Source of the DNA: an uncultured bacterium | GTDB taxonomy: Bacteria; Verrucomicrobiota; Verrucomicrobiia; Verrucomicrobiales; DEV007 | NCBI GenBank assembly: GCA_963977015.1 | Contig: CAXBMO010000008.1 | Span: 1 to 64,000, forward strand | Reading direction: 5' to 3' | Length of the DNA: 64,000 bases | In this document: positions 2,771 through 23,997 of the stretch, in pieces | Position numbering within the stretch: the first letter of the stretch is position 1 | Layout of the letters: each line of letters starts with the position of its first letter | Notes under the pieces: generated by a model | Databases searched by the model: none | Told to the model about the DNA's origin: nothing | The model's input: the letters and a program-made list of their open reading frames with translations, nothing else | Program-made: the position numbers and the translations under genes

Positions 2771-4519
2771 TTACTTCACGTTCAGCTTCCCGAAGAGCCA
2801 TGCGCACCCAAAGGTGATCGCGGCATTGACTGGGAAGAACCATGGAAAGGGAACGCTGGTGATCGGCCTTCCTTCGATTCCCATGAGCTTGAGAATGTTA
2901 AACAAATCAGGAAGCATCAAAGATGCGAGAAGCACTGAAATCGCCGTTCCAACCAGAATTCCTATGGTGCTCGCGCGGACCGGTAAAATCGCGCAAAGCA
3001 GAATCCCCAACATCGGGCCGTAGGTGTAGGAAACCATGCGGAAGGCAAAGCCGAGCAGGTTCTTCTCGCCCATTTGGTAGAGGACGTTGAGAAGAATGGC
3101 GAAGAGCGAGAGTCCGATACCCCAGCCAATCACCATCATCCGCGACTTCCAGACCATGTCCTTGCTGCCTTGGGCGTGCTCAAACTTCTCCCGGCCATAG
3201 ATCATCGACAGGGTGGTTTGGGAGAGCGCGGCCAGGATCGAGTCGAGGCTGGAAATCGCCGCGGCAAAGGCGCCGGCAATCAGCAACCCGGAAAGGCCGA
3301 CCGGTAGGACGGTGGTGATCCAGACGGGGAAGACGTTGTTCTTGTCCTGCACGAAAAGCCCAAACTCGGCTTCCGTGAGCGGCCTTGCCTGATACCAGGC
3401 GTAAAGCCCGGCGCTGACGAGCAGCATCAACACGGTGATCAACTGGGAAACGCTGCTCCAGATGATCGATTTCCGAGCTTCCGAGGCGTTGGCGCAGCAG
3501 AACATGCGCTGGGCCATCAGCTGATCGGTTCCAAACGCGGCGAAGTTCTGAAACGGCATCGCAAACAGCGCAATCCAGAAGGTGAAGATGAGGAACCCCT
3601 TTGTTTCGGGATCCTTGGCGCGGAACTCCCACAACTTCAGTTTGTTGCGTTTCGTAACGGTGGCGGGAATCGTCTTGTCGCCGATTTTGATGGTGGGTGA
3701 CTCGCCAAACAAGACCACTCCGGTCAGGGTCGGGATTCCATCGGTGGTGCGCTCCACCGCGACCAGCGAAGACGCTTCGCCATTTTCGTTTTCCACTCGG
3801 TAAACCGTTTCCTTCAGCGTTTGCTCATTCCAAACGAACTCAATCACGTCAGCTTGATGGTTGCTCTCGGAAATGGTGTTCCAGCCTCCTCCGATCCCGC
3901 TGATCAGCCAAATCAGGGCAAGGATTCCACCGCCCAGGAAGAGGAAAAACTGCACCACATCAGTCCAGATCACGGTTCGCATTCCGCCCATCAGGGTCCA
4001 TCCAATGGCGAAAATTCCGATGATGACGATGCAGCCTTCAATCGGCATTCCAGTCACGACCTTGAGGATGATGGCGGTGACGAGCACGCGAACGCTCTGT
4101 CCCAGAATCGCGCCGACCGAAAACAGAATGGTAACCAGCTTCTTGATCGATTCGCCGAGCCGGTTCCCCATAAAGTCATAGGGACTGTAAATTTCCTTCT
4201 CGTAATAAAGAGGAACGAGCCAGTATCCCACCGCGAATCGGGCGATGATGGACCCGAGTCCCCATTGCAGATAGGTGAAGTCGCCATTGACGGCAAACAC
4301 GGTGCCCGGCACGCCGATAAACGTCAGCGCGCTGATCTCCGTCGCGATAATCGATCCGGTAACCGCTTGCCAGGGAAGGCTGCGCCCGCCGAGAAAGAAG
4401 TCGCGAATCGTGCCTTGTTTCCCGCGAAGCGCGTGCCCGACCCAGGTGGTGAAGGCGAGATACAGAAAGACGACCATCCAGTCGATCGTCGTGAAAAATT
4501 CGTGAACGGATTGGTCCAT
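2771..4519 (-). CDS. sodium:solute symporter (SSS) family transporter
   Basis: DFFLGGRSLPW, ATEISALTFIGVP, GGMRTVIWTDVVQ, GTDQLMAQR and AAAISSLDS motifs; many TM helices. Confidence 0.9.
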   Translation of the reverse strand: MDQSVHEFFTTIDWMVVFLYLAFTTWVGHALRGKQGTIRDFFLGGRSLPWQAVTGSIIATEISALTFIGVPGTVFAVNGDFTYLQWGLGSIIARFAVGYWLVPLYYEKEIYSPYDFMGNRLGESIKKLVTILFSVGAILGQSVRVLVTAIILKVVTGMPIEGCIVIIGIFAIGWTLMGGMRTVIWTDVVQFFLFLGGGILALIWLISGIGGGWNTISESNHQADVIEFVWNEQTLKETVYRVENENGEASSLVAVERTTDGIPTLTGVVLFGESPTIKIGDKTIPATVTKRNKLKLWEFRAKDPETKGFLIFTFWIALFAMPFQNFAAFGTDQLMAQRMFCCANASEARKSIIWSSVSQLITVLMLLVSAGLYAWYQARPLTEAEFGLFVQDKNNVFPVWITTVLPVGLSGLLIAGAFAAAISSLDSILAALSQTTLSMIYGREKFEHAQGSKDMVWKSRMMVIGWGIGLSLFAILLNVLYQMGEKNLLGFAFRMVSYTYGPMLGILLCAILPVRASTIGILVGTAISVLLASLMLPDLFNILKLMGIEGRPITSVPFPWFFPVNAAITFGCAWLFGKLNVK

Positions 4520-7499: not shown

Positions 7500-7579
7500 A
7501 CTGCGCCCGATCTTGCATCAAACACAGGATCGGATTGAAAAATCGGCATCCTGAAAGATGAGTGCCCCAACCTGAAAGC

Positions 7580-10177
7580 ATGAAAAATTCATCCTCGTTC
7601 GCGGATCTATCCATCAAACACAAGCAGACTGCGGTCATCATGGGCACAACGGCCCTCGCGCTGCTGTTGGCTTGTGCGGGATTTTTCGTCTTCGACTACG
7701 TCTCGATCCGCAAGGCGCTGAATGAAGAATTGGCGACTCTCTCCGGGGTCATCGCCTACAACAGCCGCGCTGCGGTCGAATTTGAGGATCCTGCCGGTGC
7801 GGAGGAAAACCTTGCGGCGTTGAGCGAGCATCAGCAGGTCATTGGCGCGCGCATTTTTGGTCCCGACAACACGACGTTTGCAACCTATGTGCGACCGGGG
7901 ATTTCCACCGAGAATTTTCCGGAAATTGCCGATGGCTCCAGTATCGAGGGGTTCCTGACTCAGTGGCGCGATATTGAGGTGGATGGAAAGCGCATTGGCT
8001 CGGTGTATCTCAAGGCCGACACCAGTCAACTCCGCAAGCGCCAGCAGCAATACGGCGTCATCGCAATCACCGTGCTGTCGATCTCCACGCTCGTCGCGTT
8101 CCTCTTCTCCGCCCAATTGCGACGCCTCATCGTGACGCCGATTACCGATTTGGCGGAGAAGGTCGATAAAATCGCGAGCGGAGACTACAGCTTGCGCGCT
8201 GAAAAACAGGGCAACGATGAATTGGGTCACCTCGTGGATGGGTTCAACGAGATGGTCGCGGAGATCCAGTCGCGAGACAAGGCGCTCGCAGAAATGGCGC
8301 TTTTTCCGGAGCTGAACCCGGCTCCGGTCGTCAAGATGGATGCGAAAGGTTCCATTCTTCTCGCCAACAACGCCGCCTGCGAAGTTTTCGAATCGAGATC
8401 GCTGACCGGCGAATCCTGGTATCGCCTTTGCCCGCCGAAAGATCGCGACGTTCTCGCGGAAGCCCTCGCCGCTGCGGAAAACGGGCACGGAACATCCCAG
8501 CAGGAAATTCAGCTTGGTGGTCGCAGCTTCCTTTTCACCTATCAGGTCGCGCCGGATCGCGAATATGTGAACGTTTATGGCGCGGACGCAACCGACCTTC
8601 GCCGCACCACCACCGAGCTGGAAAAAGCCCGCGATGAGGCGGAAACCGCGAACAAGTTCAAGAACGAATTTCTCGCCAACATGAGCCATGAGTTGCGCAC
8701 GCCGCTCAACGCGATTCTCGGGCTCAGTGAGGCGATGCAGCTTGGCGTTTATGGTGAGATTGAGGAGGGGAAACATAAGGCGCTCCTTCAGATTCAATCG
8801 AGCGGGCACCACTTGCTCGACCTCATCAACGACGTGCTCGATCTTTCCAAGATCGAGGCCAATCGCTTCGAGCTGGAACTCGGCAACGTCTCCGTTACGG
8901 ATCTTTGCGAGGCCAGCCTCGCCTTTGTCGCGGAGGAGGCGCGCCGCAAGCAAATCAACCTCACGACCAAAGTTGACGAAAAGATCGGATCAATCTATGC
9001 CGACGATCGCCGCCTCAAACAGTGCCTCGTCAATCTTCTGCACAACGCGGTCAAGTTCACCCGCGCCGGTGGAATGGTTAGTCTCGAAGTGAAGGCGATG
9101 GAGAACGTGAAAGCGGTTTCGTTCTCGGTTTCCGATACCGGGATCGGAATTCCCCAGGATCGCCTCAATCGCCTGTTCAAGCCCTTCAGTCAGGCGGACT
9201 CCAGCCTCTCACGCGAATTTGGGGGAACCGGACTTGGTCTCTCGCTGGTTTACAGCCTCGTCAATCTTCACAGCGGAAGCGTTAGTGTCGAGACCGAGGA
9301 AGGGAAGGGCAGTCGCTTTACCATCGTCGTTCCATGGCACCGGGTTGCCGGTGCTGACAAACCGAGCCCCAAGCAACTGGCCAGGACCTCGACGCGCGAC
9401 TTTGCGAAGGTTTTCCAGAAAGCTGTTCTCATCGAAGATTCCACCATCACGGCCGATCAGGTGACGCGCTACCTCAGCGACCTCAACGTCGAAACGGTGG
9501 TCCACACCGTCGGTCGTGGCGCCGTCGAAAAAGTTGCCGAGGCCAAACCGGGAATCGTCTTTCTCGATCTGCGTTTGCCGGACGTTTCCGGTTGGGCTGT
9601 GCTCGACCAACTGCGCCAGAATCCGGAAACCTCAGGCATTCCGATCGTCATCATCTCCATGTATGACGATCGTGCTCAGGGGCTTGAACGCGGTGCGGTT
9701 GATTATCTTATCAAGCCGGTTACGCCGGAGCGCTTGGTCGATTCACTCCAGCTTGCCGCCTTGGGTGCTTCCCGCGACAATCTTTCCGTTCCCGCCGCCA
9801 AACAGGATGGGGCTCACGTGGGCAAACGGCTGCTTCTCGTCGAAGACAACGAAGCGAACATTGTTCCCACGACGGACTACCTCGCCTCCCAGGGGTTCGA
9901 AGTTACCGTCGCCCGCAACGGGATCGAAGCCCTTCACAATGCCAAAATTGCCACTCCTGACATCATCCTCATGGATATCCAGATGCCGGAGATGGACGGA
10001 CTCGAGGCGACGCGTCGAATCCGGGGGGATCTCAAACTGCAGACGCCGATTATTGCCCTGACCGCCCTGGCGATGCCGGGCGACAAGGAGCGCTGTCTCG
10101 ACGCCGGAGTGGACGATTACATGTGCAAGCCGGTCAGCTATCGCGGCTTGTCCGAGGCGATCAGCAAACTGATCTAA
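7580..10177 (+). CDS. hybrid sensor histidine kinase (CHASE-like sensor, HAMP, PAS, HisKA, HATPase, two receiver domains)
   Basis: FLANMSHELRTPLNAI H-box, NLLHNAVKFT, DTGIGI, GGTGLGL; receiver motifs FLDLRLP and LMDIQMP. Confidence 0.95.
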   Translation: MKNSSSFADLSIKHKQTAVIMGTTALALLLACAGFFVFDYVSIRKALNEELATLSGVIAYNSRAAVEFEDPAGAEENLAALSEHQQVIGARIFGPDNTTFATYVRPGISTENFPEIADGSSIEGFLTQWRDIEVDGKRIGSVYLKADTSQLRKRQQQYGVIAITVLSISTLVAFLFSAQLRRLIVTPITDLAEKVDKIASGDYSLRAEKQGNDELGHLVDGFNEMVAEIQSRDKALAEMALFPELNPAPVVKMDAKGSILLANNAACEVFESRSLTGESWYRLCPPKDRDVLAEALAAAENGHGTSQQEIQLGGRSFLFTYQVAPDREYVNVYGADATDLRRTTTELEKARDEAETANKFKNEFLANMSHELRTPLNAILGLSEAMQLGVYGEIEEGKHKALLQIQSSGHHLLDLINDVLDLSKIEANRFELELGNVSVTDLCEASLAFVAEEARRKQINLTTKVDEKIGSIYADDRRLKQCLVNLLHNAVKFTRAGGMVSLEVKAMENVKAVSFSVSDTGIGIPQDRLNRLFKPFSQADSSLSREFGGTGLGLSLVYSLVNLHSGSVSVETEEGKGSRFTIVVPWHRVAGADKPSPKQLARTSTRDFAKVFQKAVLIEDSTITADQVTRYLSDLNVETVVHTVGRGAVEKVAEAKPGIVFLDLRLPDVSGWAVLDQLRQNPETSGIPIVIISMYDDRAQGLERGAVDYLIKPVTPERLVDSLQLAALGASRDNLSVPAAKQDGAHVGKRLLLVEDNEANIVPTTDYLASQGFEVTVARNGIEALHNAKIATPDIILMDIQMPEMDGLEATRRIRGDLKLQTPIIALTALAMPGDKERCLDAGVDDYMCKPVSYRGLSEAISKLI

Positions 10178-10192
10178 CCACGCCATCCGGGC

Positions 10193-10226
10193 AAAAAAAG
10201 AGCGCGATGTGATCGCGCTCTTTGTT
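10193..10226. terminator. bidirectional intrinsic terminator
   Basis: aaagagcgcgat-gtg-atcgcgctcttt hairpin flanked by A- and T-runs, between convergent genes. Confidence 0.8.
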
Positions 10227-10282
10227 GTAAGCAGGGAAAGGATGAAGGATGAACCGAATCACCCTCCATCCCTTATCGGGGC

Positions 10283-10408
10283 TCACTTGCCGTATTCGAC
10301 ATAGCCGGGAGCTGGAGCGTCCACTGCAGCTTTTTTGGCGCAGGAACTAACACTCATGGAGAGAGCTGCCGCAGCAACGGCGATGACGAGAATTTTTGCG
10401 AATTTCAT
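10283..10408 (-). CDS. small lipoprotein, 41 aa (MKFAKILVIAVAAAALSMSVSSCAKKAAVDAPAPGYVEYGK)
   Basis: Translated by hand. Signal peptide with VSSC lipobox; ends before the terminator. Confidence 0.7.
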   Translation of the reverse strand: MKFAKILVIAVAAAALSMSVSSCAKKAAVDAPAPGYVEYGK

Positions 10409-10594
10409 GCTAAACCTTGGTTAAGTGAGGGTTCAATAATTAAAGATCGGAGGGGTCATAAAGCAACCGTGGCTGAAACGCAATGCTTTTTCCGGAAAGT
10501 GAGGGGCAATCGATGGATGAAGCGCGCTTTTTTTGGGGGGCCTTTCCACCTTGGTGATTGCCAGGAGGGAGGTGGGAAGGTGAGGGCATGCCCG

Positions 10595-11326
10595 CTACAA
10601 AAGCGGAAGCGATTCGATGTCCAGATGTTGCTCGATGTCATCCATCGCCTCGGCGGTGGAAACGATGCGGGCGTAGCGGTTTCGCAGCGTCTTCAAACTG
10701 GCCTCGTGCAATTCCGGCGTCACCGTGGTGCATCCGTCGTTAACGAGGGTGACGAAGTAACCCAGGTCGCAGGCGTCGCGAACGGTGGTTTCGACACATT
10801 CATTGGTGTAAACGCCGACGACGTAGAGTGAGCTGATTCCCAGGTTGTTGAGGACGTAGTGCAGATTGGTGGACGAAAACACCCCGCTCGCCGTCTTGTT
10901 GATGACGATTTCATCGCCAACCGGGGCAACTTCCTCAAGAAAGCAGGCCTCGCCGGACCCGGGAGCGGCGTGCAGTTCCAACCGCTTGTGGCCCTTGGAC
11001 CGGTCCCGGCCATCGCGGGTCAGGGACTGAATCCGAACGTGAATGACTTCCAGATCGTGGAATCGAAAGCAGTTCTGCAGGTTGTGCACATTCGGCAACA
11101 CCGTGTCCCGCAATTGGCTGAAGTAATACTGCATCTCCTCCAGGGGAATCGGAGATTTCTCGTAGTCGCGAAACAGGCCGTGTCCTTCGGCTGCATCCAG
11201 ATACTGCATGTCGATGCAAAGCAGGGCGGTATCGCGATTGCGAAGATCTTTTTCGCGTTTCGGATTCTCGATAAACGAATCCTGATAGATCGGTTTGAGT
11301 GGATCGCCTTTGGGTGTCTCGGTCAT
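10595..11326 (-). CDS. isochorismatase-family cysteine hydrolase
   Basis: ALLCIDMQ (Asp), INKTASGVF (Lys) and GVYTNECVETTVRDA (Cys) catalytic triad motifs. Confidence 0.9.
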   Translation of the reverse strand: MTETPKGDPLKPIYQDSFIENPKREKDLRNRDTALLCIDMQYLDAAEGHGLFRDYEKSPIPLEEMQYYFSQLRDTVLPNVHNLQNCFRFHDLEVIHVRIQSLTRDGRDRSKGHKRLELHAAPGSGEACFLEEVAPVGDEIVINKTASGVFSSTNLHYVLNNLGISSLYVVGVYTNECVETTVRDACDLGYFVTLVNDGCTTVTPELHEASLKTLRNRYARIVSTAEAMDDIEQHLDIESLPLL

Positions 11327-12606
11327 TGACCAGACGATAACGGCTGGTTGCCGAGTTGGCAAAGTGCAGCAAGCATGAGATTGGCTCCGGCCTCGACGTC
11401 TTCCCAGGCGGTCCATTCTGCCGGAGAGTGGCTCATCCCGCCACGGCTCGGAACAAAGATCATCGCCATGGGGGCAATTCGGCCGACCAACTGCGCGTCG
11501 TGGGCCGCCCCGCTCAACATTTTCAGCGACCGGAGTCCGAGACGTTCCGCCTCTGTTTCCAACAGACTCACGAGCCGTTCCTCGGACGAAACCGGCAGGA
11601 TCTCACCTTGAAGATTGAACTCGAACTTCAGGCCGCGACGCCGAGAAATCGCCGCGAGCGCCTTTTGGAAGGCGAGCGAAAGATCGGCGAGGATCTCGGT
11701 CGAGGGATCGCGAAAATCGAGCGAAAACTCGACCATGCCGGGGACGGAATTCGGCGCACCCGGCAGAATTTCGGCCTTCCCGATGGTGGCCCGGCTGTTT
11801 TCTCCGCCGTTTTCCTCCAGGATTCGCGGCAATTCGTGGGCAAAGTCCGCCAGCCCCATGAACGCGTCCTTGCGGTAGTCCATCGGAGTCGTTCCGGCGT
11901 GGTTCGCTTCGCCCGTAAACCGAAGCGACCAGGATTGCAGCCCGGTGATGCTCGAAACGATGCCGACCTGAAGATGGCTCTCGTCCAGCACCGGACCCTG
12001 CTCGATGTGAAGTTCAAGATACGAGTCGATTTCATCGGGAGACCGGCGCGACTCCAGCGCTTTCATCGGGTCCAGCCCGTGGGCCAGCATCGCGTCACTG
12101 AGCTTGGTGCCGCCCAGGTCAACGGCGTTCTGAACCTTGTCGAGGGTGAGGATCCCGGTGAATGCTTCCGAGCCAAACGTGCCTCCGAAACGCCCTTCCT
12201 CGTCGCTGAACGCGATCAATTCCATGCTGCGTTCCGGCGAAAACTTGGCGGCTTTCAGAGTTCGCAGACATTCCAAACCAACCACCACACCCAGGGTTCC
12301 ATCGAGCATCCCGGCACAGGGCACGGTATCGATGTGGGAACCGACGAAGATGCGTGGCGAATCCGACTTCCCCTTCAAAACCCCAGAAATGTTGGCCGCG
12401 CCATCCGAATTGGGCTCCAGACCGTTTTCTTCAATCCGGTGAAGCAGCCAGCGCTTCCCTTCCATGTCCTCGTCCGTGAACGCCATCCGGTAGATGCCCC
12501 GGTCTCGCTCATGCTGACCGATCGCCGCGAGGGTGAGGATGTCGGACTTGATGCGCTCGATATCAACCCGGAGGTCGAGTGGCGAAGGTGAAAGGGATTT
12601 GGACAT
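11323..12606 (-). CDS. M20 Zn-dependent N-carbamoyl-L-amino acid amidohydrolase (allantoate amidohydrolase family)
   Basis: GSHIDTVP, DEEGRFG, ELHIEQGP, NHAGTTPM, SGAAHDA and SHSPAE motifs. Confidence 0.92.
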   Translation of the reverse strand: MSKSLSPSPLDLRVDIERIKSDILTLAAIGQHERDRGIYRMAFTDEDMEGKRWLLHRIEENGLEPNSDGAANISGVLKGKSDSPRIFVGSHIDTVPCAGMLDGTLGVVVGLECLRTLKAAKFSPERSMELIAFSDEEGRFGGTFGSEAFTGILTLDKVQNAVDLGGTKLSDAMLAHGLDPMKALESRRSPDEIDSYLELHIEQGPVLDESHLQVGIVSSITGLQSWSLRFTGEANHAGTTPMDYRKDAFMGLADFAHELPRILEENGGENSRATIGKAEILPGAPNSVPGMVEFSLDFRDPSTEILADLSLAFQKALAAISRRRGLKFEFNLQGEILPVSSEERLVSLLETEAERLGLRSLKMLSGAAHDAQLVGRIAPMAMIFVPSRGGMSHSPAEWTAWEDVEAGANLMLAALCQLGNQPLSSGQ

Positions 12607-14568
12607 TTAGTGCGAACTGACGAACTGCCGGTGAAGAATGTGAAGGGTCAGGAGGTGGTTGAGCAACGTGTCCTTGCGAACCAACGAAGTTCCATCGGTA
12701 TCCGCGCGGTAGTCTGTCAAAAATTTCGAAACCCGTTCGGGTGAGCAGATTCCCGCATCGGCCACCGTGCTTTCGCCGAGGTAGGCGTCGATCAGCTCAT
12801 TGACCTTGGCCCGCTTGCTTTCATCGGTGTGGGCGGGTGGAGCCATGAAGGCAAATTTCTCGCGCCGGTAGAGAACTTCGGGAAGAACGCCTTTCACCGC
12901 CTCGCGCAGAACATACTTTTCAATGTTGCCCTTGATTCGAAGGCTGGGCGGAACATCCACCGCGATCTTGGCGAGGTGATGGTCGAGAAACGCCGGACGG
13001 GATTCCATCGAGTTCGCCATGTCGACGCGATCGCCACCCCAGTTGAGGATCTGGCCTTCCAGTTGGCATTTCGACCACGTGTATTGGGCTTTGTCGAGCG
13101 GGTGACGTCCGTCGAGCATGGATTGGTCAATTCGCGAGGCGATTTCCGCGATCGGATCGTAATCGCGCAGCGTGTCCTGGACGTCGTCGGAAAGGAGTGG
13201 GCGGGCGAGGTCGAGGGTGTCCATCCACGGCTGAATCCATGAAGGTGTAAACCCGCAAAGCGCATCCCAGCTGGGATGGGAACGCTGGTTCTCAGCCAGG
13301 ATCGCGCCCTTGAAGAGCGAGTTGGTTCGCTCCAGCGCCGCCTGGTATTCCGCCCGAACATTGTCAGGTTCATGGCTGAGACCGTGGAGAAACATGTCGC
13401 GCTTCAACGCGGGATACCCGGCAAAGAGCTCATCAGCGCCTTCTCCGGTGATCACACAACGATAGCCGGAATCCCAGACCCGTTTCGACATCAGGTTCTT
13501 GGCGACACCGAGCGTGTTGTAAAAGGTCCGCTCCGCATGCCAGACGGTTTTGATATAGTTCTCGCCATAGAGATCTTCCGCTTTCAGATGGATCACCTCC
13601 TGGTCGGCATTCATCGATTCCGCCATCTCCTTGGCAATTGGCGCCTCGTCGTAATCGTCATCGTCGAAGGAGATGGTGTAGGCCTTGGTGGGCGATTGCA
13701 TCGCGCCCGTCGCGAGGCCGAGGATACAACAAGAATCAATGCCGCCGGAGAGATAACACCCGACGGGAACGTCAGCCTCAAGGCGCAGGACGATCGACCG
13801 AATCAGTTCCTCGCGAACCTTCTCAATATGTTCCTGCTCGTCGATTTCTCGAGGGCGATCTTCTTCGTTGGGAAAGTCGAAATCCCAGTAGCGTTGTTGG
13901 TGGATGTCCAGCTTGCCGTTCCGCTTGCGAATGCGAAGGAAATGACCGGGATCCAGCGAGATAATCCCTTCGAAGGCGCTCATGCCCGGCGCGATGGTCT
14001 GCATCAGTTGATGCAACGCGGCCTTGGGATCGAGGCGACGCGGGACATCGGGATGGGCCAGGACCGACTTGGCTTCCGATCCGTAAACGATCGTACTTTG
14101 ATCCGGCGAAACCCAGTAAAAGAGTGGTCTCACTCCGAAGCGATCCCGAATTAAAATCAGCTCATCCGCCTCGCAATCGTAAAGGGCAAAGGCGAACTCG
14201 CCGCGGAGATGCTCGGTAAAATCGAGACCGAACTTGCGATACAATCCCATCGCGATTTCCGAATCCGACTTCGTCAAAAACCGGTCGCCCTCGGCCATCA
14301 AGGTCGATCGATGGCGTTTGAAATCGTAAAACTCGCCGTTGGTCGTGAGGACGTATTTGCCGTCAGCCGCGTGAAGCGGTTGGCAGCCGCCTTCCAGGTC
14401 GTTGATCGCCAGACGCGTATGTCCCAACGCAACGCCTTTGCTGCGTTCGACATAGTGACCGTTCCCGTCCGGGCCGCGGTGGACAATGGTTTGCAATTGC
14501 CCTTCGAGAATCTCGGAGGTGTTGGAGGGAAGGGGAGTAGCCGAAAAGTGGCCTGCGATGCCGCACAT
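12607..14568 (-). CDS. asparagine synthase (glutamine-hydrolysing)-like amidotransferase
   Basis: Ntn Cys2 (MCGIAG), HRGPD, GHTRLAI, PP-loop LSGGIDS and TGEGADELFAGY. Confidence 0.92.
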   Translation of the reverse strand: MCGIAGHFSATPLPSNTSEILEGQLQTIVHRGPDGNGHYVERSKGVALGHTRLAINDLEGGCQPLHAADGKYVLTTNGEFYDFKRHRSTLMAEGDRFLTKSDSEIAMGLYRKFGLDFTEHLRGEFAFALYDCEADELILIRDRFGVRPLFYWVSPDQSTIVYGSEAKSVLAHPDVPRRLDPKAALHQLMQTIAPGMSAFEGIISLDPGHFLRIRKRNGKLDIHQQRYWDFDFPNEEDRPREIDEQEHIEKVREELIRSIVLRLEADVPVGCYLSGGIDSCCILGLATGAMQSPTKAYTISFDDDDYDEAPIAKEMAESMNADQEVIHLKAEDLYGENYIKTVWHAERTFYNTLGVAKNLMSKRVWDSGYRCVITGEGADELFAGYPALKRDMFLHGLSHEPDNVRAEYQAALERTNSLFKGAILAENQRSHPSWDALCGFTPSWIQPWMDTLDLARPLLSDDVQDTLRDYDPIAEIASRIDQSMLDGRHPLDKAQYTWSKCQLEGQILNWGGDRVDMANSMESRPAFLDHHLAKIAVDVPPSLRIKGNIEKYVLREAVKGVLPEVLYRREKFAFMAPPAHTDESKRAKVNELIDAYLGESTVADAGICSPERVSKFLTDYRADTDGTSLVRKDTLLNHLLTLHILHRQFVSSH

Positions 14569-14574
14569 GAGTGG

Positions 14575-15687
14575 TTAGGAAGGATTGGGTTCCAGATTGA
14601 TAAGGTTTGGGAGCGATTTGAGCCGGCCCAGCACCGCCATGAGAAGCGCCTGACGAATAAACACGGCTCCGTGTGCCTGTGAAAAATAGAGGTTGTGACT
14701 CGTTTTATCCAGCGAGGTATCCAGTTCATCCAGACGAGCGAGCGGGTGAAGGATGACCGCGCTTTCTTTGATTGGGCTTTCCGAGTTGAGCTTGAACCGG
14801 CTATCCATGTTCTTATAGGAATCCCCCAGAAAGGCGATGGAGTTCATATAGATCACATCAAGGTCGGGAAGATGTTCGCGCACGTCGTTGGAGACTTCGT
14901 ACTCAATATCCGCTTCCTTCAATTGCGCGATGACGTCTTCCCCAAAAGGGTCCGCCATCTCGGAAATCACCGTGACCTTGCCGATGTGCTCGCGGAAAAG
15001 CAGTGCCATGAGGAGAAACGACTTCACCGCCCGCATCGAACCCGGCGTGCCCAGAATTCCGAGATTCAACCGGTGATCTCCATCCTGGTGAGGGCCGGCG
15101 AGAGCGGGTTTCCATTTGAGCAACGCAAACCAATCCGCCAAAGCCTGGGTCGGATGCTCTCCAGAGCCGTTGCCCGCATTGATGAGCGGAATGCGAAGAT
15201 TCTCGAGGATCTGCTCCGGCGCGTCGGTTTCGGTGTGGCGCATGATGACGAGATCCGCATACGCGTTGAACATCTCTCCAATGTCGGAAAGGGATTCACC
15301 CTTGGCCTGACCGGTGGTTCGACCGTCCGCGATGGAGATCACTTTTCCATCCAACCGAAGAATCGCGCTCTCAAAACTGGTTCGGGTGCGGGTCGAAGCT
15401 TCGAAAAACGCGGTGACGGCAATCTTTCCATCCAACGGATGATAGGGCCAGATCTCGATCTTCTCGAGAATCGCCGCCAGCTTGCAGAGTTCCACCACCT
15501 GGTCGAACGAGAACTGGCCCGCGTTAAGAATATTCTGACCATCCAATTGGGCCAAAATTTCCAAACATACCGGATTGTCGATGAAGAGTCCCGACGGCTC
15601 TGGCCGGATCGCGTCCGAGTCTGCCGGGGGCTCAAGATTGGGAATAATTCGGTTTTCCCTCAGCGGGGATTGTGAGGTCGGATCCAT
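14575..15687 (-). CDS. aspartate/ornithine carbamoyltransferase-family protein (atypical ATCase paralogue)
   Basis: FFEASTRTRTSFE, KGESL, NAGNGSGEHPTQAL and HPLAR present; the ATCase TRxQxER motif is replaced by YMNSIAFL. Confidence 0.88.
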   Translation of the reverse strand: MDPTSQSPLRENRIIPNLEPPADSDAIRPEPSGLFIDNPVCLEILAQLDGQNILNAGQFSFDQVVELCKLAAILEKIEIWPYHPLDGKIAVTAFFEASTRTRTSFESAILRLDGKVISIADGRTTGQAKGESLSDIGEMFNAYADLVIMRHTETDAPEQILENLRIPLINAGNGSGEHPTQALADWFALLKWKPALAGPHQDGDHRLNLGILGTPGSMRAVKSFLLMALLFREHIGKVTVISEMADPFGEDVIAQLKEADIEYEVSNDVREHLPDLDVIYMNSIAFLGDSYKNMDSRFKLNSESPIKESAVILHPLARLDELDTSLDKTSHNLYFSQAHGAVFIRQALLMAVLGRLKSLPNLINLEPNPS

Positions 15688-15723
15688 GACAAGTTTCTGG
15701 TTTCGAGGTTGGGGCAGCTGGCG

Positions 15724-15843
15724 CTACCAAAGCGTTTTGTTCTTCCAATCCCGGATCAATAGCAGGATCAGGGCCAAGGCTCCCGTGGTGGTCCAGAGGA
15801 GAGCCATGACGATCAGGAATTGAAGGAAGGATGCTGAAAACAT
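15724..15843 (-). CDS. small membrane protein, 39 aa (MFSASFLQFLIVMALLWTTTGALALILLLIRDWKNKTLW)
   Basis: Translated by hand. One long hydrophobic helix and a basic C-terminus; fills the operon gap exactly. Confidence 0.7.
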   Translation of the reverse strand: MFSASFLQFLIVMALLWTTTGALALILLLIRDWKNKTLW

Positions 15844-15856
15844 GGGAGGGTTTGAG

Positions 15857-17293
15857 TTAGTCGAGAGATGCCGCCTCCTGATGAAGCGGAGCTGGCCGGA
15901 TGTAACGTGCCGAAATCGTGAAAATCATCGAAATCCCTGCGCCAACGAGGGAGGCGGTGAACCATCCCAGGGTGAAATACGCGACTACCCCCAAAATGGA
16001 TCCGGCCAGAATGCCGGCGATGACGATTGGCCGATTGATTTGCGACCAGTAAAGTCCTGCAATCACCGGCCAAATCAGACTCGCCACCAGGGGGCCGGAG
16101 ATAAAGAGCGCATTGATAATCGGCCATTTCGGGGCGGCAAGAATCCAGGTGAGAACGCCGACGCCGATGATGACTCGCCCCGCGATTTTGCGGAAATTCC
16201 TGTCATCGAGCGATTTCTTGAACAGGCCCTCCTGCACGTCGCGAATCAGCAGATCCGACGTCGCCGCGAGCAGGGAGTCGATGGAGGACGCCATCGAGCA
16301 AAAAAGAACGATGAGGATGAGCACCCCGGCAAAGGCTCCGAACCCGGCATTTGCCATCACCGCCGAAGCGACCACCGGGCCCACCTGATTTTCATCAGCA
16401 ATATTGATTCCCAGCGGTCCCGCCGCCAGGGCAATGAATCCAGCCGCAATCGGAATTGGAAACCAGAGTATCCCTGACAAGAGAAAGGCTTTGGGGGCAA
16501 TCTCCTTGCGCATGGCAAAGGCCCGCGACCACCAGACGTTGTTGTGGAAGACCTCACCAAACCCGAACAGCATGTTGTTGAACACCGCGAGCAGGGCCGC
16601 TGGCATCACGACCTTCAGAAGGGACGGTTGGTAGGTGCTGATGTGGGTGTAGGCTTCGGAGAAATCGATCTGAATCGCCACCATCACGCCAATAAACACA
16701 ATGCCGATGAGGATGATCAGGCTCTGGATGAAATCGGTGCCGATCACGGCGTAAAGACCGCCAAACAAGGTGTAGAGCACGCAGACGACGAGGATGAGCG
16801 ACATGCCCTGGAGATAGGGAATCCCCGCCAGCGCCAACATCAACTCGCCTCCCGCGATTGCCATACTGACAAGCCACGAAAGGGAATAGAGCATCGTGAT
16901 GATCAGAAAAATCGACCATCCGACCCGCCCGTAGCGCATGCGGAAAAAATCACCCGCCGTCACGCCTTTCGGTAGGAGCTTGCGAATGCGTATCGCGAAA
17001 AACGCGAACAAAATGAGCCCGAAACTCGCCGTCGAATAGGCCACCATTCCCCAGACGCCCAACGTCAGCGCGAAAACCGGAGCCAACATCGTCGTGTTGG
17101 AGGTCACCCAGGTCGCCATTGCCGTGGCGGAGCCGAGCGAGAGGCCGACGTTGCGTCCGGCGAGCATGAAACCCTCGGAACTTTTCGCCTTTTTTCCCCA
17201 GAAAATGCCGAGGCCGACCCAAAGTAATCCCAACAAGATCACAATCGCCCAACCGGTGCCAACCGAGATGGAATTGGCGAGGAGATCGATCAA
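15857..17293 (-). CDS. sodium:solute symporter family protein (Dur3/PutP-like)
   Basis: FMLAGRNVG, YTLFGGLYAVIGTDFIQ and SMASSIDSLL motifs, multiple TMs. Probable TTG start overlapping the upstream stop. Confidence 0.88.
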   Translation of the reverse strand: MIDLLANSISVGTGWAIVILLGLLWVGLGIFWGKKAKSSEGFMLAGRNVGLSLGSATAMATWVTSNTTMLAPVFALTLGVWGMVAYSTASFGLILFAFFAIRIRKLLPKGVTAGDFFRMRYGRVGWSIFLIITMLYSLSWLVSMAIAGGELMLALAGIPYLQGMSLILVVCVLYTLFGGLYAVIGTDFIQSLIILIGIVFIGVMVAIQIDFSEAYTHISTYQPSLLKVVMPAALLAVFNNMLFGFGEVFHNNVWWSRAFAMRKEIAPKAFLLSGILWFPIPIAAGFIALAAGPLGINIADENQVGPVVASAVMANAGFGAFAGVLILIVLFCSMASSIDSLLAATSDLLIRDVQEGLFKKSLDDRNFRKIAGRVIIGVGVLTWILAAPKWPIINALFISGPLVASLIWPVIAGLYWSQINRPIVIAGILAGSILGVVAYFTLGWFTASLVGAGISMIFTISARYIRPAPLHQEAASLD

Positions 17294-17688
17294 GAATTCT
17301 CCCTTCGATTCGCATTGAAATGTCCGAGAAAAATGGCGGCAAACGTTGCCCCGACCACGATGCTGCCGAGGGCCAACAGGGTGAAAAGCTGGGTTCGGGA
17401 CGTGAAGACCACTCTGATTTCCAGCGGTGGAGACCAAGCGGGACTTGCTTCGCCAGAAATCTCGCCGACGCGGAAAAAGTGGGATCCTTCCGGCAGCCCC
17501 GTCAGGACCGAAGCAGAGTCGCGGCCCTGGTAACGGACCACGGGGGCGGAAAAGCCAGCCGTCGGCGCCTGTTGAATCACGACCTCAGACGCTTCCGGAA
17601 CATTCCAGCGCAGGGTCACCGTCCCACGATCCGAGATGCTGCCATCCAGAGTTTCCCGATCGGTGAAGTCTACCTGCTCGGCCTTCAA
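17290..17688 (-). CDS. hypothetical protein, beta-sandwich-like domain with C-terminal TM anchor
   Basis: First ORF of the operon. VTLRW...FFRV...WS pattern resembles FN3; C-terminal hydrophobic helix. Confidence 0.65.
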   Translation of the reverse strand: MKAEQVDFTDRETLDGSISDRGTVTLRWNVPEASEVVIQQAPTAGFSAPVVRYQGRDSASVLTGLPEGSHFFRVGEISGEASPAWSPPLEIRVVFTSRTQLFTLLALGSIVVGATFAAIFLGHFNANRRENS

Positions 17689-17925
17689 TGGTCCCCCGCA
17701 AAGTAGAAAAGCGATTGCCAGGGGAAGGTAGTTGGGGCGGATAAAACAGATAGTTCGTCAAATGAAGCCGTGACTCAGCCAAACATTGCTTGGCGAGGGT
17801 TCAAGATGTTTTCTGCCAAAACCTCCAAGGGCTGGGTTGCGGACCCGAAATCAAGTCGTCCCTTTGGTGAATGGTGAGGGCATCTTCTCGCTTGATTCGC
17901 GAACCGTCAGTGCGGACTCGTTGAC

Positions 17926-19977
17926 ATGCCCCTTAAGATCGTTGCCGTTTTGCTCCTGCTTTCCTACCTCGCCTGGGGAGAACATGGTGGCACGAAAACG
18001 TTGGAGGCGGCAAACCGGGCGCTCCAGCAACAGTTCCGCGGAATCCTCACCAATGAATCCGTTCCCGTGTTTTGGACCGATGACGGAGCTGCGGCGGTCT
18101 ATCACGTGGAGCTGGCGCCCGGAAAACGGGAGTGGCGGCGATTGGATCTGGCGTCGGGTGAAGTGACGTCGTTGCCGGAAAAGCCCGATGCGATGACGAA
18201 GGGGGAAAAGCAGCCGCCTCGCGACAACGGGACGACGGCCGCGCTCGAATCGCGAAGGGGCGAGATTTCCTATGACGGGAAGCATACCGCGGAGTTTCGC
18301 GAAGGGGCGCTGTTCTTGAACGGAGAGGAGAAAGCCGGGTTGCTGCCGGAGGGGTGGAAGTGGGAGGGCAAGCCGATGTGGTCGCCGGATTCGACGCGCG
18401 TCGTCGTTTGGAAAACCACGCAACATCCGGTTCGCGAGGTTCGCTATGTGCGATCGTCGCCTGACGAACAACTTCAGCCGGAGCATTTTACGCATCCCTA
18501 TCCCAAGCCGGGCGACCTCCTGAATTTGCCCCACCCGGTCATTCTGTTTGTCGATGGCCGCGAGCCGATCGAGGTGGATCCGATGCTGATTGAGAATCCC
18601 TTCAGCCTTCGAAATTTTGGTTGGCGTCAGGATTCCGAGCGCTTCGTGTTCGAATTCATCGAACGCGGGTTTGGCAAGTTTCGCGTCATCGAAATCCAGA
18701 CGGAAACGCGAACCCAGCGAGCCTTGATCGATGAAACGGACGAGAAGTTCATCCTCGTGTTTGGAAATACGTTTCGCCGCGATTTGAAGGGCGGGGACGA
18801 GATTCTCTGGCTGTCCGAACGCGATGGCTGGAATCATCTCTACTTGATCGACGGGAGGTCCGGAGCGGTGATTCGGCAACTGACGAGCGGCGAATGGATC
18901 GTCCGGGAAGTTGTCGACGTGAATGAGCGCACGCGGACGGCGATCGTGAAAATCCAGGGTTACGACGCTGGGGAGGATCCCTATCATGCGCACTTCGCCA
19001 CGGTGAATCTGGACACGGGGAAGTTGATGCGGCTCACGGAGGGCGACGGAACCCACGAGTTGACCTGGTCGCCAACCGGCGAGTATTACCTGGATCGTTG
19101 GTCGCGCGTCGACCTTCCGCCGGTTCACGAGATTCGCCGATTTTCCGACGGCGCGAAGATCGCAACCCTGGCTGAGGCGAGCGGGCTCGACGCCTTGGCG
19201 AAGACCGGTTGGCAGAAGCCGGAGCGCTTCGTGACCAGGGATCGCAACGGCGAGTTCGACATTCACGGCATCATCCTGCGACCGGCGAATTTTGATCCGA
19301 ACAAGAAGTATCCGGTGGTCGAGGCAATCTACGCCGGCCCGCATGGATCCTTCACGCCGAAGAGTTGGAGGCTGCAATTTGGTGCCATGTCAGGAATGGC
19401 GAATGCCGGTTTCATCGTCGTGAAGCTGGATGGGCTGGGGACGAATCATCGCGGGAAGAAGTTTCAGCAGGTCGCCTACCAAAACCTGATCGATTCCGGG
19501 TTTCCCGATCGCGTGAAGTGGATCCGCGAAGCCGCGAAACAGGTTCCGCAAATGGATCTGGATCGCGTCGGGTTGTATGGCGGGTCGGCTGGCGGACAAA
19601 GCACGTTGGCGGGACTGCTGACCCATCCGGACTTCTACAAGGCGGGCGCGGCGGATTGCGGTTGTCACGACAATCGGATGGACAAGATCTGGTGGAACGA
19701 GCAATGGATGGATTGGCCGGTTGGTCCTCATTATGCGGCCAACGCCAACGCCACCCACATCGAGGCGCTGCAAGGCGCGTTGCTCCTGACCGTCGGTGAA
19801 CTGGACAAAAACGTGGACCCGGCTTCGACCTTGCAGGTTGTGGATGCGCTGATCAAAGCGGACAAGGATTTCGAGTTTTTCCTCGTGCCGGGAGCCGGTC
19901 ACGGAATCGGCGAGGCGCCCTATCTCCGCCGCAAGCGGATCGAGTTTTTTCAACGCCATCTCGGAGCCCCCCAATGA
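17926..19977 (+). CDS. S9 family peptidase (DPP IV N-terminal domain plus peptidase domain)
   Basis: YPKPGD, SERDGWNHLY, GGSAGG nucleophile, GELDKNVDP and GAGHG. Confidence 0.92.
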   Translation: MPLKIVAVLLLLSYLAWGEHGGTKTLEAANRALQQQFRGILTNESVPVFWTDDGAAAVYHVELAPGKREWRRLDLASGEVTSLPEKPDAMTKGEKQPPRDNGTTAALESRRGEISYDGKHTAEFREGALFLNGEEKAGLLPEGWKWEGKPMWSPDSTRVVVWKTTQHPVREVRYVRSSPDEQLQPEHFTHPYPKPGDLLNLPHPVILFVDGREPIEVDPMLIENPFSLRNFGWRQDSERFVFEFIERGFGKFRVIEIQTETRTQRALIDETDEKFILVFGNTFRRDLKGGDEILWLSERDGWNHLYLIDGRSGAVIRQLTSGEWIVREVVDVNERTRTAIVKIQGYDAGEDPYHAHFATVNLDTGKLMRLTEGDGTHELTWSPTGEYYLDRWSRVDLPPVHEIRRFSDGAKIATLAEASGLDALAKTGWQKPERFVTRDRNGEFDIHGIILRPANFDPNKKYPVVEAIYAGPHGSFTPKSWRLQFGAMSGMANAGFIVVKLDGLGTNHRGKKFQQVAYQNLIDSGFPDRVKWIREAAKQVPQMDLDRVGLYGGSAGGQSTLAGLLTHPDFYKAGAADCGCHDNRMDKIWWNEQWMDWPVGPHYAANANATHIEALQGALLLTVGELDKNVDPASTLQVVDALIKADKDFEFFLVPGAGHGIGEAPYLRRKRIEFFQRHLGAPQ

Positions 19978-23908: not shown

Positions 23909-23997
23909 GATTTGGGTTCAATACGGCTGAGCGGTCGAATGTGAGACTTCCCAATCCGTGGGTTGCCAGACTCCCATTCTTGTCTTACCTCCCGGTC

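Follow-up and report, generated by a model that had tools for sequence, protein, structure and literature searches.

The DNA analysed here (the window) comprises the first 64,000 nucleotides of contig CAXBMO010000008.1 from an uncultured member of the Verrucomicrobiales (GenBank assembly GCA_963977015.1). It carries a minus-strand operon of seven genes encoding a membrane protein with an FN3-like fold, an SSS-family symporter, a 39-aa hydrophobic peptide, a carbamoyltransferase (CTase), an AsnB-family amidotransferase, an M20-family amidohydrolase (M20) and an isochorismatase-family hydrolase (Isoch). We propose, tentatively and at a little less than an even chance, that this module serves the synthesis, re-import and breakdown of an N-carbamoyl amino-acid amide used as a compatible solute, with N-carbamoyl-glutamine amide (CGA) as the leading candidate.

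In the proposed scheme, the CTase would use carbamoyl phosphate to carbamoylate the alpha-amine of a neutral amino acid, with L-glutamine as the likeliest acceptor, and the AsnB-family enzyme would amidate the remaining carboxylate with glutamine and ATP to give the N-carbamoyl amino-acid amide. A three-part transporter, formed by a DUR3-like SSS protein as its core together with the 39-aa peptide and a periplasmic FN3 subunit that a single helix anchors, would import the compound or recover what has leaked. When the pool must shrink, the cysteine amidohydrolase would strip the amide, and the M20 carbamoylase would then strip the carbamoyl group to return the amino acid. In marine and saline bacteria, the compound would probably act as a compatible solute. 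We infer the substrates, the product, the direction of the steps and the osmotic role from the evidence below.

Enzymes of the operon

The CTase consists of the domains PF02729 and PF00185 (Pfam and NCBIfam were used for the domain assignment of all operon proteins). It scored below every NCBIfam equivalog cut-off for aspartate carbamoyltransferase (ATCase) and ornithine carbamoyltransferase (OTCase), with 168 bits against 263 for NF002032 and 166.4 against 236.95 for TIGR00670. A separate canonical pyrB, anticipated in the preliminary description, was indeed found at C3:72488-73381 (258.6 bits; cut-off 237), and an OTCase-like gene also lies elsewhere in the genome. Alignment with solved ATCases, with the PyrB of the same genome and within the family indicated that the CTase has in common with the PyrB catalytic chain the fold, the carbamoyl-phosphate site (STRTR, R105 in MRH, HPTQ) and the residues R167 and K84. 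The carbamoyl-phosphate motifs were invariant in the family alignments, and SxRT, HPxQ and Arg105, which mark the transcarbamylase superfamily, are all present. The CTase differs from PyrB in its sub-cut-off scores, in its accessory distribution, in the presence of a true pyrB beside it in the genome and in two motifs: HPLP has become HPLA, and the RxQxER stretch reads N-S-I-A-F-L-G-D in the window and is replaced family-wide too. The window CTase has none of the motifs DxxxSMG and HCLP (OTCase), HDLP (DPT/DBTCase) and H[ST]LP (UGTCase). According to the motif passages of Shi et al. (2015, PMC4581275), RxQxER in the 240s loop defines ATCase, R229 and Q231 bind the beta-carboxylate of aspartate, and R167 and K84 bind the alpha-carboxylate. 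Since the CTase lacks R229 and Q231 and keeps R167 and K84, its acceptor would be an alpha-amino acid without a second carboxylate. Judged by these residues, the CTase is not an aspartate enzyme; public records label its relatives 'aspartate carbamoyltransferase'.

Barba, Dutoit, Legrain & Labedan (2013, PMC4016543, Table 1) defined a pseudo-ATCase group by HPLA at H265-P268 and AIA, AIS or SIA at R230-Q232. The passages of that paper on its marine subgroup, which is numbered differently in table and text, put a Na+ symporter on one side of the gene and a 'putative asparaginase' on the other, usually with a HyuC-like neighbour, describe the carriers as marine, list Rhodopirellula baltica, Nitrosococcus oceani, Synechococcus WH 8102 and Kangiella among them and leave the function open. 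The window has both HPLA and SIA as well as the symporter/AsnB-like/HyuC-like synteny, the 'putative asparaginase' of these passages corresponding to the AsnB-family amidotransferase. By sequence and gene order, the window CTase is a member of this marine subgroup, with no structural difference from the published block, and the window adds a new verrucomicrobial representative. The same passages mention no FN3 protein, 39-aa peptide, isochorismatase-family hydrolase or osmolyte. Another non-aspartate member of the ATCase branch, the UGTCase of Rubrobacter xylanophilus, is described in parts of PMC4581275 and PMC4016543 with H[ST]LP and with carbamate kinase and allantoinase as neighbours, whereas the window CTase has HPLA and neither neighbour occurs among its conserved families. 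The best carbamate kinase match in the genome reached 29.5 bits against a cut-off of 358. We considered purine catabolism through a UGTCase-type enzyme and dropped it, as both the UGTCase motifs and carbamate kinase are missing.

The amidotransferase passed the generic asparagine-synthase model TIGR01536 (375 bits; cut-off 267) and stayed below the equivalogs for AsnB (PRK09431, 240.7 against 499) and for the AsnO of N-acetylglutaminylglutamine amide (NAGGN) synthesis (TIGR03104, 248.3 against 570). Cys2 (MCGI) and the SGGIDS PP-loop, the hallmarks of the glutamine-hydrolysing AsnB family, were kept in 68 sequences. Its best solved relative is the hydroxyamidotransferase 7ylz (171 bits), with E. 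coli AsnB at 126 bits. A canonical asnB had been expected elsewhere as well; this expectation failed, the operon gene being the only AsnB-type gene in the genome, which has AsnRS and GatB and lacks AsnA. Asparagine in this lineage seems to be supplied by the tRNA-dependent route or by import, and the lineage does not depend on an AsnB-like gene, because 50 of the 134 genomes in our family census lack one at E <= 1e-30.

NAGGN offers a precedent for amine capping combined with AsnB-type amidation. The product of its asnO-ngg 'trio' is derived from glutamine and made uncharged by an amine cap and an AsnB-family amidation, the logic that we propose for the window too, and the NAGGN operon also carries a hydrolase. 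The two systems differ in that the NAGGN cap is added by a GNAT/ATP-grasp enzyme, whereas in the window it would come from carbamoyl phosphate via a transcarbamylase, and in that the window has a dedicated transporter and two hydrolases attached. Ngg itself (TIGR03103) reached at best 29.5 bits against 569 in the genome, and neither ectoine synthase nor OtsA was found there above cut-off.

Both hydrolases belong to families with suitable chemistry. M20 exceeded TIGR01879 (338.8 against 204 bits) and NF006771 (475 against 399), passed an 'allantoate amidohydrolase' subfamily model and remained below the substrate-specific equivalogs ErtE (352 < 520) and AllC (259 < 598). Among solved structures, it is closest to the L-N-carbamoylase 3n5f (233 bits, full-length alignment), with which its His, Asp, Glu and His motifs align, as do an Asn and an Arg of the carboxylate site; we take the former to be metal ligands and the latter to bind the substrate carboxylate. 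As this Asn and Arg are kept, the M20 substrate should have a free carboxylate beside the ureido group. The ligand motifs are thus those of HyuC and 3n5f, and no hydantoinase is present with the window enzyme. Isoch matched PF00857 with 116.7 bits, and its Asp-Lys-Cys triad (D39, K134, C177) was kept in 39 sequences. Its best solved relatives, with which it shares the cysteine-hydrolase triad, are triuret and biuret hydrolases, RutB and N-carbamoylsarcosine amidase, all of which act on terminal carbamoyl or amide groups. The substrate-specific equivalogs BiuH (70 < 370) and RutB (57 < 378) were not reached.

A symporter with two probable small partners

Among proteins of known structure, the SSS protein is closest to DUR3 urea-H+ symporters (87 bits; next family 39 bits). 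We took the urea-site and proton-pair residues of Arabidopsis DUR3 (PDB 9j7c) from the binding-site passages of PMC11840088 and mapped them on a HMMER alignment, in which single positions carry some risk at this low identity. W93, T98, Y117 and W338 are kept in the window, Y315 and Y461 are replaced by W and F, and W95, Q124 and N305 by T, G and G; the proton pair D312/E402 reads N/L. The site is thus identical to that of DUR3 at four of nine positions, conservatively changed at two and occupied by smaller residues at three, so that it departs from the DUR3 pattern. Across 60 family sequences, the window included, eight of the nine positions were constant in 60/60 (G244 in 59/60), with W95->T and Q124->G in all 60 and N305->G in 59, and position F/Y397 was F in 52 and Y in 8. 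At the D312 position, N occurred in 44 and S in 16. Such a urea-type pocket with added room would be suited to a substituted urea. Compared with DUR3, the window SSS is shorter and is accompanied by two small partner proteins.

Neither the 132-aa nor the 39-aa protein matched any Pfam or NCBIfam family. An AlphaFold model of the 132-aa protein, built from 20 orthologues (pLDDT 93.7), predicts a beta-sandwich at about residues 17-93 and a C-terminal transmembrane helix at 98-131. The top PDB match in Foldseek was the FN3 domain 2db8 (E 4.4e-4), and the next matches include FN3 domains and adnectins. The modelled fold and these matches bear out the label 'FN3-like membrane protein', which had been given to this gene in the preliminary description. 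In complex prediction, SSS and the FN3 protein reached ipSAE values of 0.77, 0.78 and 0.78, compared with 0.00 for the best control; at least 90% of the contacts recurred between runs, with a pLDDT of 81-82 for the partner. Among solved complexes, 58 of 80 reached the ipSAE mark that we applied, and among mismatched pairs 2 of 110 did, which is a rough guide only, since our own alignments were used. These predictions support binding of the FN3 protein to SSS. The 39-aa peptide is probably a small transporter subunit.

Orthologues of the FN3 protein begin with an N-terminal signal peptide. In the window, a matching hydrophobic stretch lies in frame upstream of TTG 17688 and runs to a TGA stop at 17758-17760 without any ATG, GTG or TTG, and the same non-canonical upstream segment resembling a signal peptide was seen in the loci of three close relatives (L007, L015 and L020). 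It is probable, from this comparison, that the FN3 gene starts upstream of 17688, near 17721-17751, at a non-canonical codon that would add the signal peptide, and the 5' end of the operon probably extends to about 17751. Several orthologues have a conserved Ile right before the hydrophobic stretch, and translation may begin at a CUG codon or at one of the AUC/AUU type.

The preliminary description had combined these genes into one chain of synthesis, uptake and recycling. Part of that chain has gained support at the level of motifs, namely from a CTase that appears not to use aspartate, from the Cys2 and PP-loop of the amidotransferase, from the carbamoylase-like M20, from the D-K-C triad of Isoch and from the DUR3-like pocket of SSS.

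A full-length urea carboxylase is encoded elsewhere in the genome (G000:C1:98195-101761, 1806 bits), and no urease alpha subunit was found there; urea would therefore be used by the ATP-dependent amidolyase route. A new urea-assimilation route was considered for the operon and dropped, given that urea carboxylase is present and urease absent and that we found no chemistry needing the amidotransferase.

Distribution and genome setting

A scan of one genome per species gave 79 loci with a close relative of the CTase, in which the operon proteins were searched by tblastn. The CTase was found in 79/79 loci (median identity 79%), the amidotransferase in 77 (79%), SSS in 75 (66%), the FN3 protein in 61 (42%), M20 in 56 (68%) and Isoch in 49 (74%). 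The 39-aa peptide was detectable by tblastn at the same position in 48 loci (56%). At least one of the two loci that miss the amidotransferase, L031, ends just past the CTase, and L080 is only 1.8 kb long. The carriers span six phyla, with Verrucomicrobiota, Bacteroidota, Planctomycetota, Myxococcota, Vampirovibrionales and Oligoflexales represented (taxa as named in the records). Cultured carriers include Oceaniferula spumae, Luteolibacter algae, Roseibacillus, Reichenbachiella faecimaris and Idiomarina. M20 and Isoch lie colinear downstream of the core in 36 loci, as a divergent pair upstream in 9 and convergent downstream in 3; just one of them was found in 6 loci, and both were missing from 25, about 15 of which have full 8-kb flanks. 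In the 9 loci with the divergent pair, M20-Isoch forms a unit upstream of a transporter-CTase-AsnB unit, and the transporter travels with the synthetic genes when the module splits. Clustering of all 994 ORFs from the 79 loci revealed no further recurrent family, the next largest groups covering 11 and then 7 loci; the 11-locus group is antisense to the CTase (for example L019:7806-8984). No regulator, carbamate kinase or hydantoinase was among the recurrent families. The recurrence of the operon genes marks a conserved module and goes beyond coincidental adjacency.

In the census of the window's own family, the CTase occurred in 33 of 134 species genomes, 26 of 79 high-quality genomes and 12 of 30 genera, and in a phylum-wide sample in 5 of 401 genomes, the window's own genome counted. 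An orthologue of the amidotransferase (at least 71% identity) adjoins the CTase in 33/33 genomes, with one more at a contig end in genome G010, and other AsnB-like matches in the census were at most 41% identical. The Isoch orthologue was present in 32 genomes, 29 of the 33 with the CTase and 3 of the 101 without it (G010 included), and in some CTase-positive genomes it lies on a different contig from the CTase. Based on this co-occurrence of CTase, amidotransferase and Isoch, the enzyme genes behave as one functional unit, and the frequencies in family and phylum imply that the module is accessory, patchy and inherited as a unit. In three genomes the CTase orthologue has one in-frame stop (G050:C409, TGA; G011:C76, TGA; G481:C1, TAA), reflecting either module decay or assembly errors.

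CGA has been known as an osmolyte since 1991. Distant relatives of the CTase were collected through a profile search, a search with one relative and the members of clusters, WP_090484788.1 and WP_006787199.1 among them. Within Ectothiorhodospira, the family was found in E. lacustris, E. magna, E. mobilis and E. shaposhnikovii and in entries labelled Ectothiorhodospira sp., including PHS-1. It also occurs in Thiorhodospira sibirica, Thioalkalivibrio, Thiohalobacter, Thiohalophilus and Thiothrix nivea, and in many marine Gamma- and Alphaproteobacteria; further carriers are Idiomarina, Aliikangiella, Pleionea, Pseudoalteromonas rubra, Kordiimonas, Emcibacter, Gimibacter and Rhodomicrobium. The 11 proteobacterial CTases that we aligned were 40-44% identical to the window CTase and had the same motifs. 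Thioalkalivibrio, Thiohalobacter, Nitrosococcus and Synechococcus are autotrophs, a physiology that homeostasis fits better than heterotrophic catabolism. The relevant passage of PMC1224877 reports CGA from E. marismortui, 'also known as E. mobilis', and that of PMC7824335 describes T. sibirica as lacking annotated osmotic genes and names CGA as a candidate. The idea that Ectothiorhodospira would carry the same cluster was largely borne out, at the level of the CTase protein, in E. mobilis and its relatives. The synteny has been in print since 2013 without a function; in the literature that we searched, we found no osmolyte assignment for it, no genes assigned to CGA and no paper with this gene combination.

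Gene order in the proteobacterial branch is illustrated by the metagenome locus L089, which keeps the order FN3-SSS-CTase-AsnB and whose CTase, a member of that branch, is 68% identical to a Thiothrix protein and 60% to an E. lacustris protein. In the metagenome scan with the second-tier alignment, whose patterns caught mostly ordinary ATCases, only L086-L089 had the module or a family CTase among the 14 best of 80 loci. The flanks of the metagenome loci held no informative neighbour gene, and tblastn of the Ectothiorhodospira CTase against plasmids gave no match.

The window, contig C8, belongs to a genome of 6.89 Mb (51 contigs, 95.3% complete), and its closest protein relatives are from Verrucomicrobiales or Akkermansiaceae-type bacteria. 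The ORF list and the spacing confirm seven tightly coupled minus-strand ORFs, as described earlier, which run head to tail over 10595-17688, are co-directional and translationally coupled, and are each single-copy in the genome. The FN3 and SSS genes overlap by 4 nt, the SSS TTG start at 17293 lying over the FN3 TGA stop. Gaps of 13 nt (SSS to peptide), 36 nt (peptide to CTase) and 6 nt (CTase to amidotransferase) follow, the amidotransferase and M20 genes abut, and M20 and Isoch share an ATGA overlap with the Isoch start at 11326; a longer Isoch ORF beginning at 11416 would extend 94 nt into M20. TTG 17293 and ATG 11326 are the likely starts of SSS and Isoch.

Table 1 Features of the operon and its upstream region in the window (columns: feature, position, strand, basis)
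Predicted FN3-fold, C-terminally membrane-anchored symporter accessory protein; 132 aa from TTG 17688	17290..17688	-	AlphaFold model, Foldseek
SSS-family symporter, DUR3-like, 478 aa	15857..17293	-	PF00474
39-aa hydrophobic peptide, probably small transporter subunit	15724..15843	-	ORF; no family match
Carbamoyltransferase (CTase), marine pseudo-ATCase subgroup, predicted non-aspartate	14575..15687	-	PF02729 + PF00185
Glutamine-hydrolysing AsnB-family amidotransferase, 653 aa	12607..14568	-	GATase_7 + Asn_synthase
M20 amidohydrolase, hydantoinase/carbamoylase family, N-carbamoyl-L-amino-acid hydrolase-like	11323..12606	-	TIGR01879
Isochorismatase-family cysteine amidohydrolase (Isoch), 243 aa from ATG 11326	10595..11326	-	PF00857
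Upstream region shared with divergent DPP-IV-like peptidase gene; probable FN3-gene 5' end and promoter	17689..17925	.	sequence

Searches for regulatory elements were negative. An Rfam scan of 9500-19000 gave no match at E <= 1, a sigma-54 pattern had no match at up to 2 mismatches in 48 upstream regions, and the best k-mer common to these regions was found in 6 of them only. A scan for consensus promoters and terminators returned 2 and 11 matches, respectively, compared with 2.5 and 9.2 expected from shuffles, and thus no excess. Directly downstream of the operon lies a gene for a hybrid histidine kinase on the plus strand (7562-10177; CHASE8, HAMP, HisKA, HATPase and two receiver stretches), which is probably unrelated to it, as a counterpart near the module (25-34% identity) was matched in just 5 of the 79 loci. 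Elsewhere in the window, a dnaA gene (Bac_DnaA, DnaA_C) occupies 837-2255 on the minus strand, some 8 kb away from the operon, and the replication origin may therefore be close to the window. The gene at 2771-4519 on the minus strand encodes another SSS-family transporter (582 aa), which is unrelated to the operon SSS and was not among its tblastn matches at E <= 1e-5. A 718-aa protein encoded at 23941-26097 on the plus strand combines a FAD_oxidored domain with a Golvesin C-terminal domain.

Alternative explanations and implications

Several observations speak against a compatible-solute pathway. In the window and in 36 of the 79 loci, the genes for synthesis and for hydrolysis follow one another on one strand, and in the window they are also translationally coupled, an arrangement that would result in a futile cycle unless there is further control. 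The amidotransferase scores above cut-off in the generic model for asparagine synthases, and it has no second such gene beside it in this genome, where AsnRS and GatB are present and AsnA is absent, so a side role in asparagine supply is possible. A sucrose-phosphate synthase in the genome (664 bits) implies that another osmolyte route exists, and a solute containing four nitrogen atoms comes at a high cost where sea water is poor in nitrogen. For R. baltica, which we count as a carrier following Barba et al. 2013 (PMC4016543), the 1H-NMR passages of PMC3694870, which extend to 260% artificial sea water, report sucrose, glutamate, trehalose and MGG only, and in them the words 'carbamoyl', 'unknown' and 'unidentified' occur 0 times. 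The main-text passages of its salt-shock transcriptome study (PMC2754498) likewise make no mention of the locus around RB13301.

These points have to be weighed together with other functions that the genes might serve. One is that an external ureide or carbamoyl-amide compound, for example of algal origin, is imported by the symporter and broken down, or scavenged for its nitrogen; the hydrolases would then release ammonia, and the CTase would run phosphorolytically to recover carbamoyl phosphate. We regard this as improbable. It would be in line with an SSS closest to urea transporters, with an M20 that passes an 'allantoate amidohydrolase' model and with an Isoch nearest to biuret/triuret hydrolases and RutB, and catabolic transcarbamylases are known, namely PTCase and, within the ATCase branch, UGTCase (passages of PMC4581275 and PMC4016543). 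However, it leaves no place for an ATP- and glutamine-consuming amidotransferase, the most constant partner of the CTase (77/79 loci; 33/33 genomes), and no carbamate kinase is found in the genome. Moreover, the transporter stays with CTase-AsnB and not with the hydrolases in split modules, about 15 fully flanked loci are without M20 or Isoch within 8 kb, and many carriers are autotrophs. It is similarly unlikely, in our estimate, that the module is biosynthetic without being osmotic, with a transient carbamoyl protection that yields an amino-acid amide, or with a ureido-amide serving as a nitrogen store or signal. The same enzyme logic would apply, and a linear use of CTase, amidotransferase and M20 would escape the futile-cycle objection to the colinear operon. 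The lack of any such bulk solute in the R. baltica NMR passages (PMC3694870) and the position of the operon gene as sole AsnB-type gene in a genome with AsnRS and without AsnA would also agree with it. Yet this function accounts neither for Isoch nor for the dedicated importer of ureide type, many loci lack M20 and Isoch close to the core, and the 50 of 134 family genomes without an AsnB-like gene speak against a lineage that depends on one.

The PP-loop domain might instead adenylate the ureido oxygen, as argininosuccinate synthetase does, so that glutamine-derived ammonia would give an N-amidino (guanidino) acid. The domain content permits this, and the chemical analogy is one among PP-loop ATP pyrophosphatases only; but we know of no AsnB-family member that performs such a conversion, the hydrolases come from families that hydrolyse ureido and amide groups and not from arginase-type guanidino hydrolases, and none of the recurrent families of the 79 loci supplies a supporting neighbour gene, all of which makes this route very unlikely. 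Hardly any credence is left for a housekeeping ATCase for pyrimidines and an asparagine synthetase that lie side by side by chance. The public ATCase labels of the relatives, the passed TIGR01536 and the absence of another AsnB or of AsnA would be expected in that case, whereas the canonical pyrB elsewhere, the failure of the CTase at all ATCase equivalogs, its lack of RxQxER, the accessory distribution (33/134 in the family, 5/401 in the phylum) and the strict linkage of CTase and amidotransferase across phyla are not, and we dropped this explanation on account of the separate pyrB and of the census linkage.

The compatible-solute proposal also invites a broader one, which we put forward as doubtful at present: ureido-amide solutes would occur commonly in many phyla, among bacteria of the sea and of soda lakes, and an SSS core that binds a periplasmic FN3 subunit and a 39-aa peptide would constitute a new heteromeric transporter. 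If the module indeed makes and recycles such a solute, the orphan metabolite CGA would obtain its pathway, and many marine genes now annotated as 'aspartate carbamoyltransferase' or 'asparagine synthase' would have to be re-annotated. The family would then represent a new transcarbamylase specificity, coupled with a new ureide-type transporter that has an FN3 partner. Nitrogen-rich ureido solutes would enter models of osmoadaptation and of marine dissolved organic nitrogen, and ureido-amide solutes would be no curiosity of one purple sulfur bacterium.

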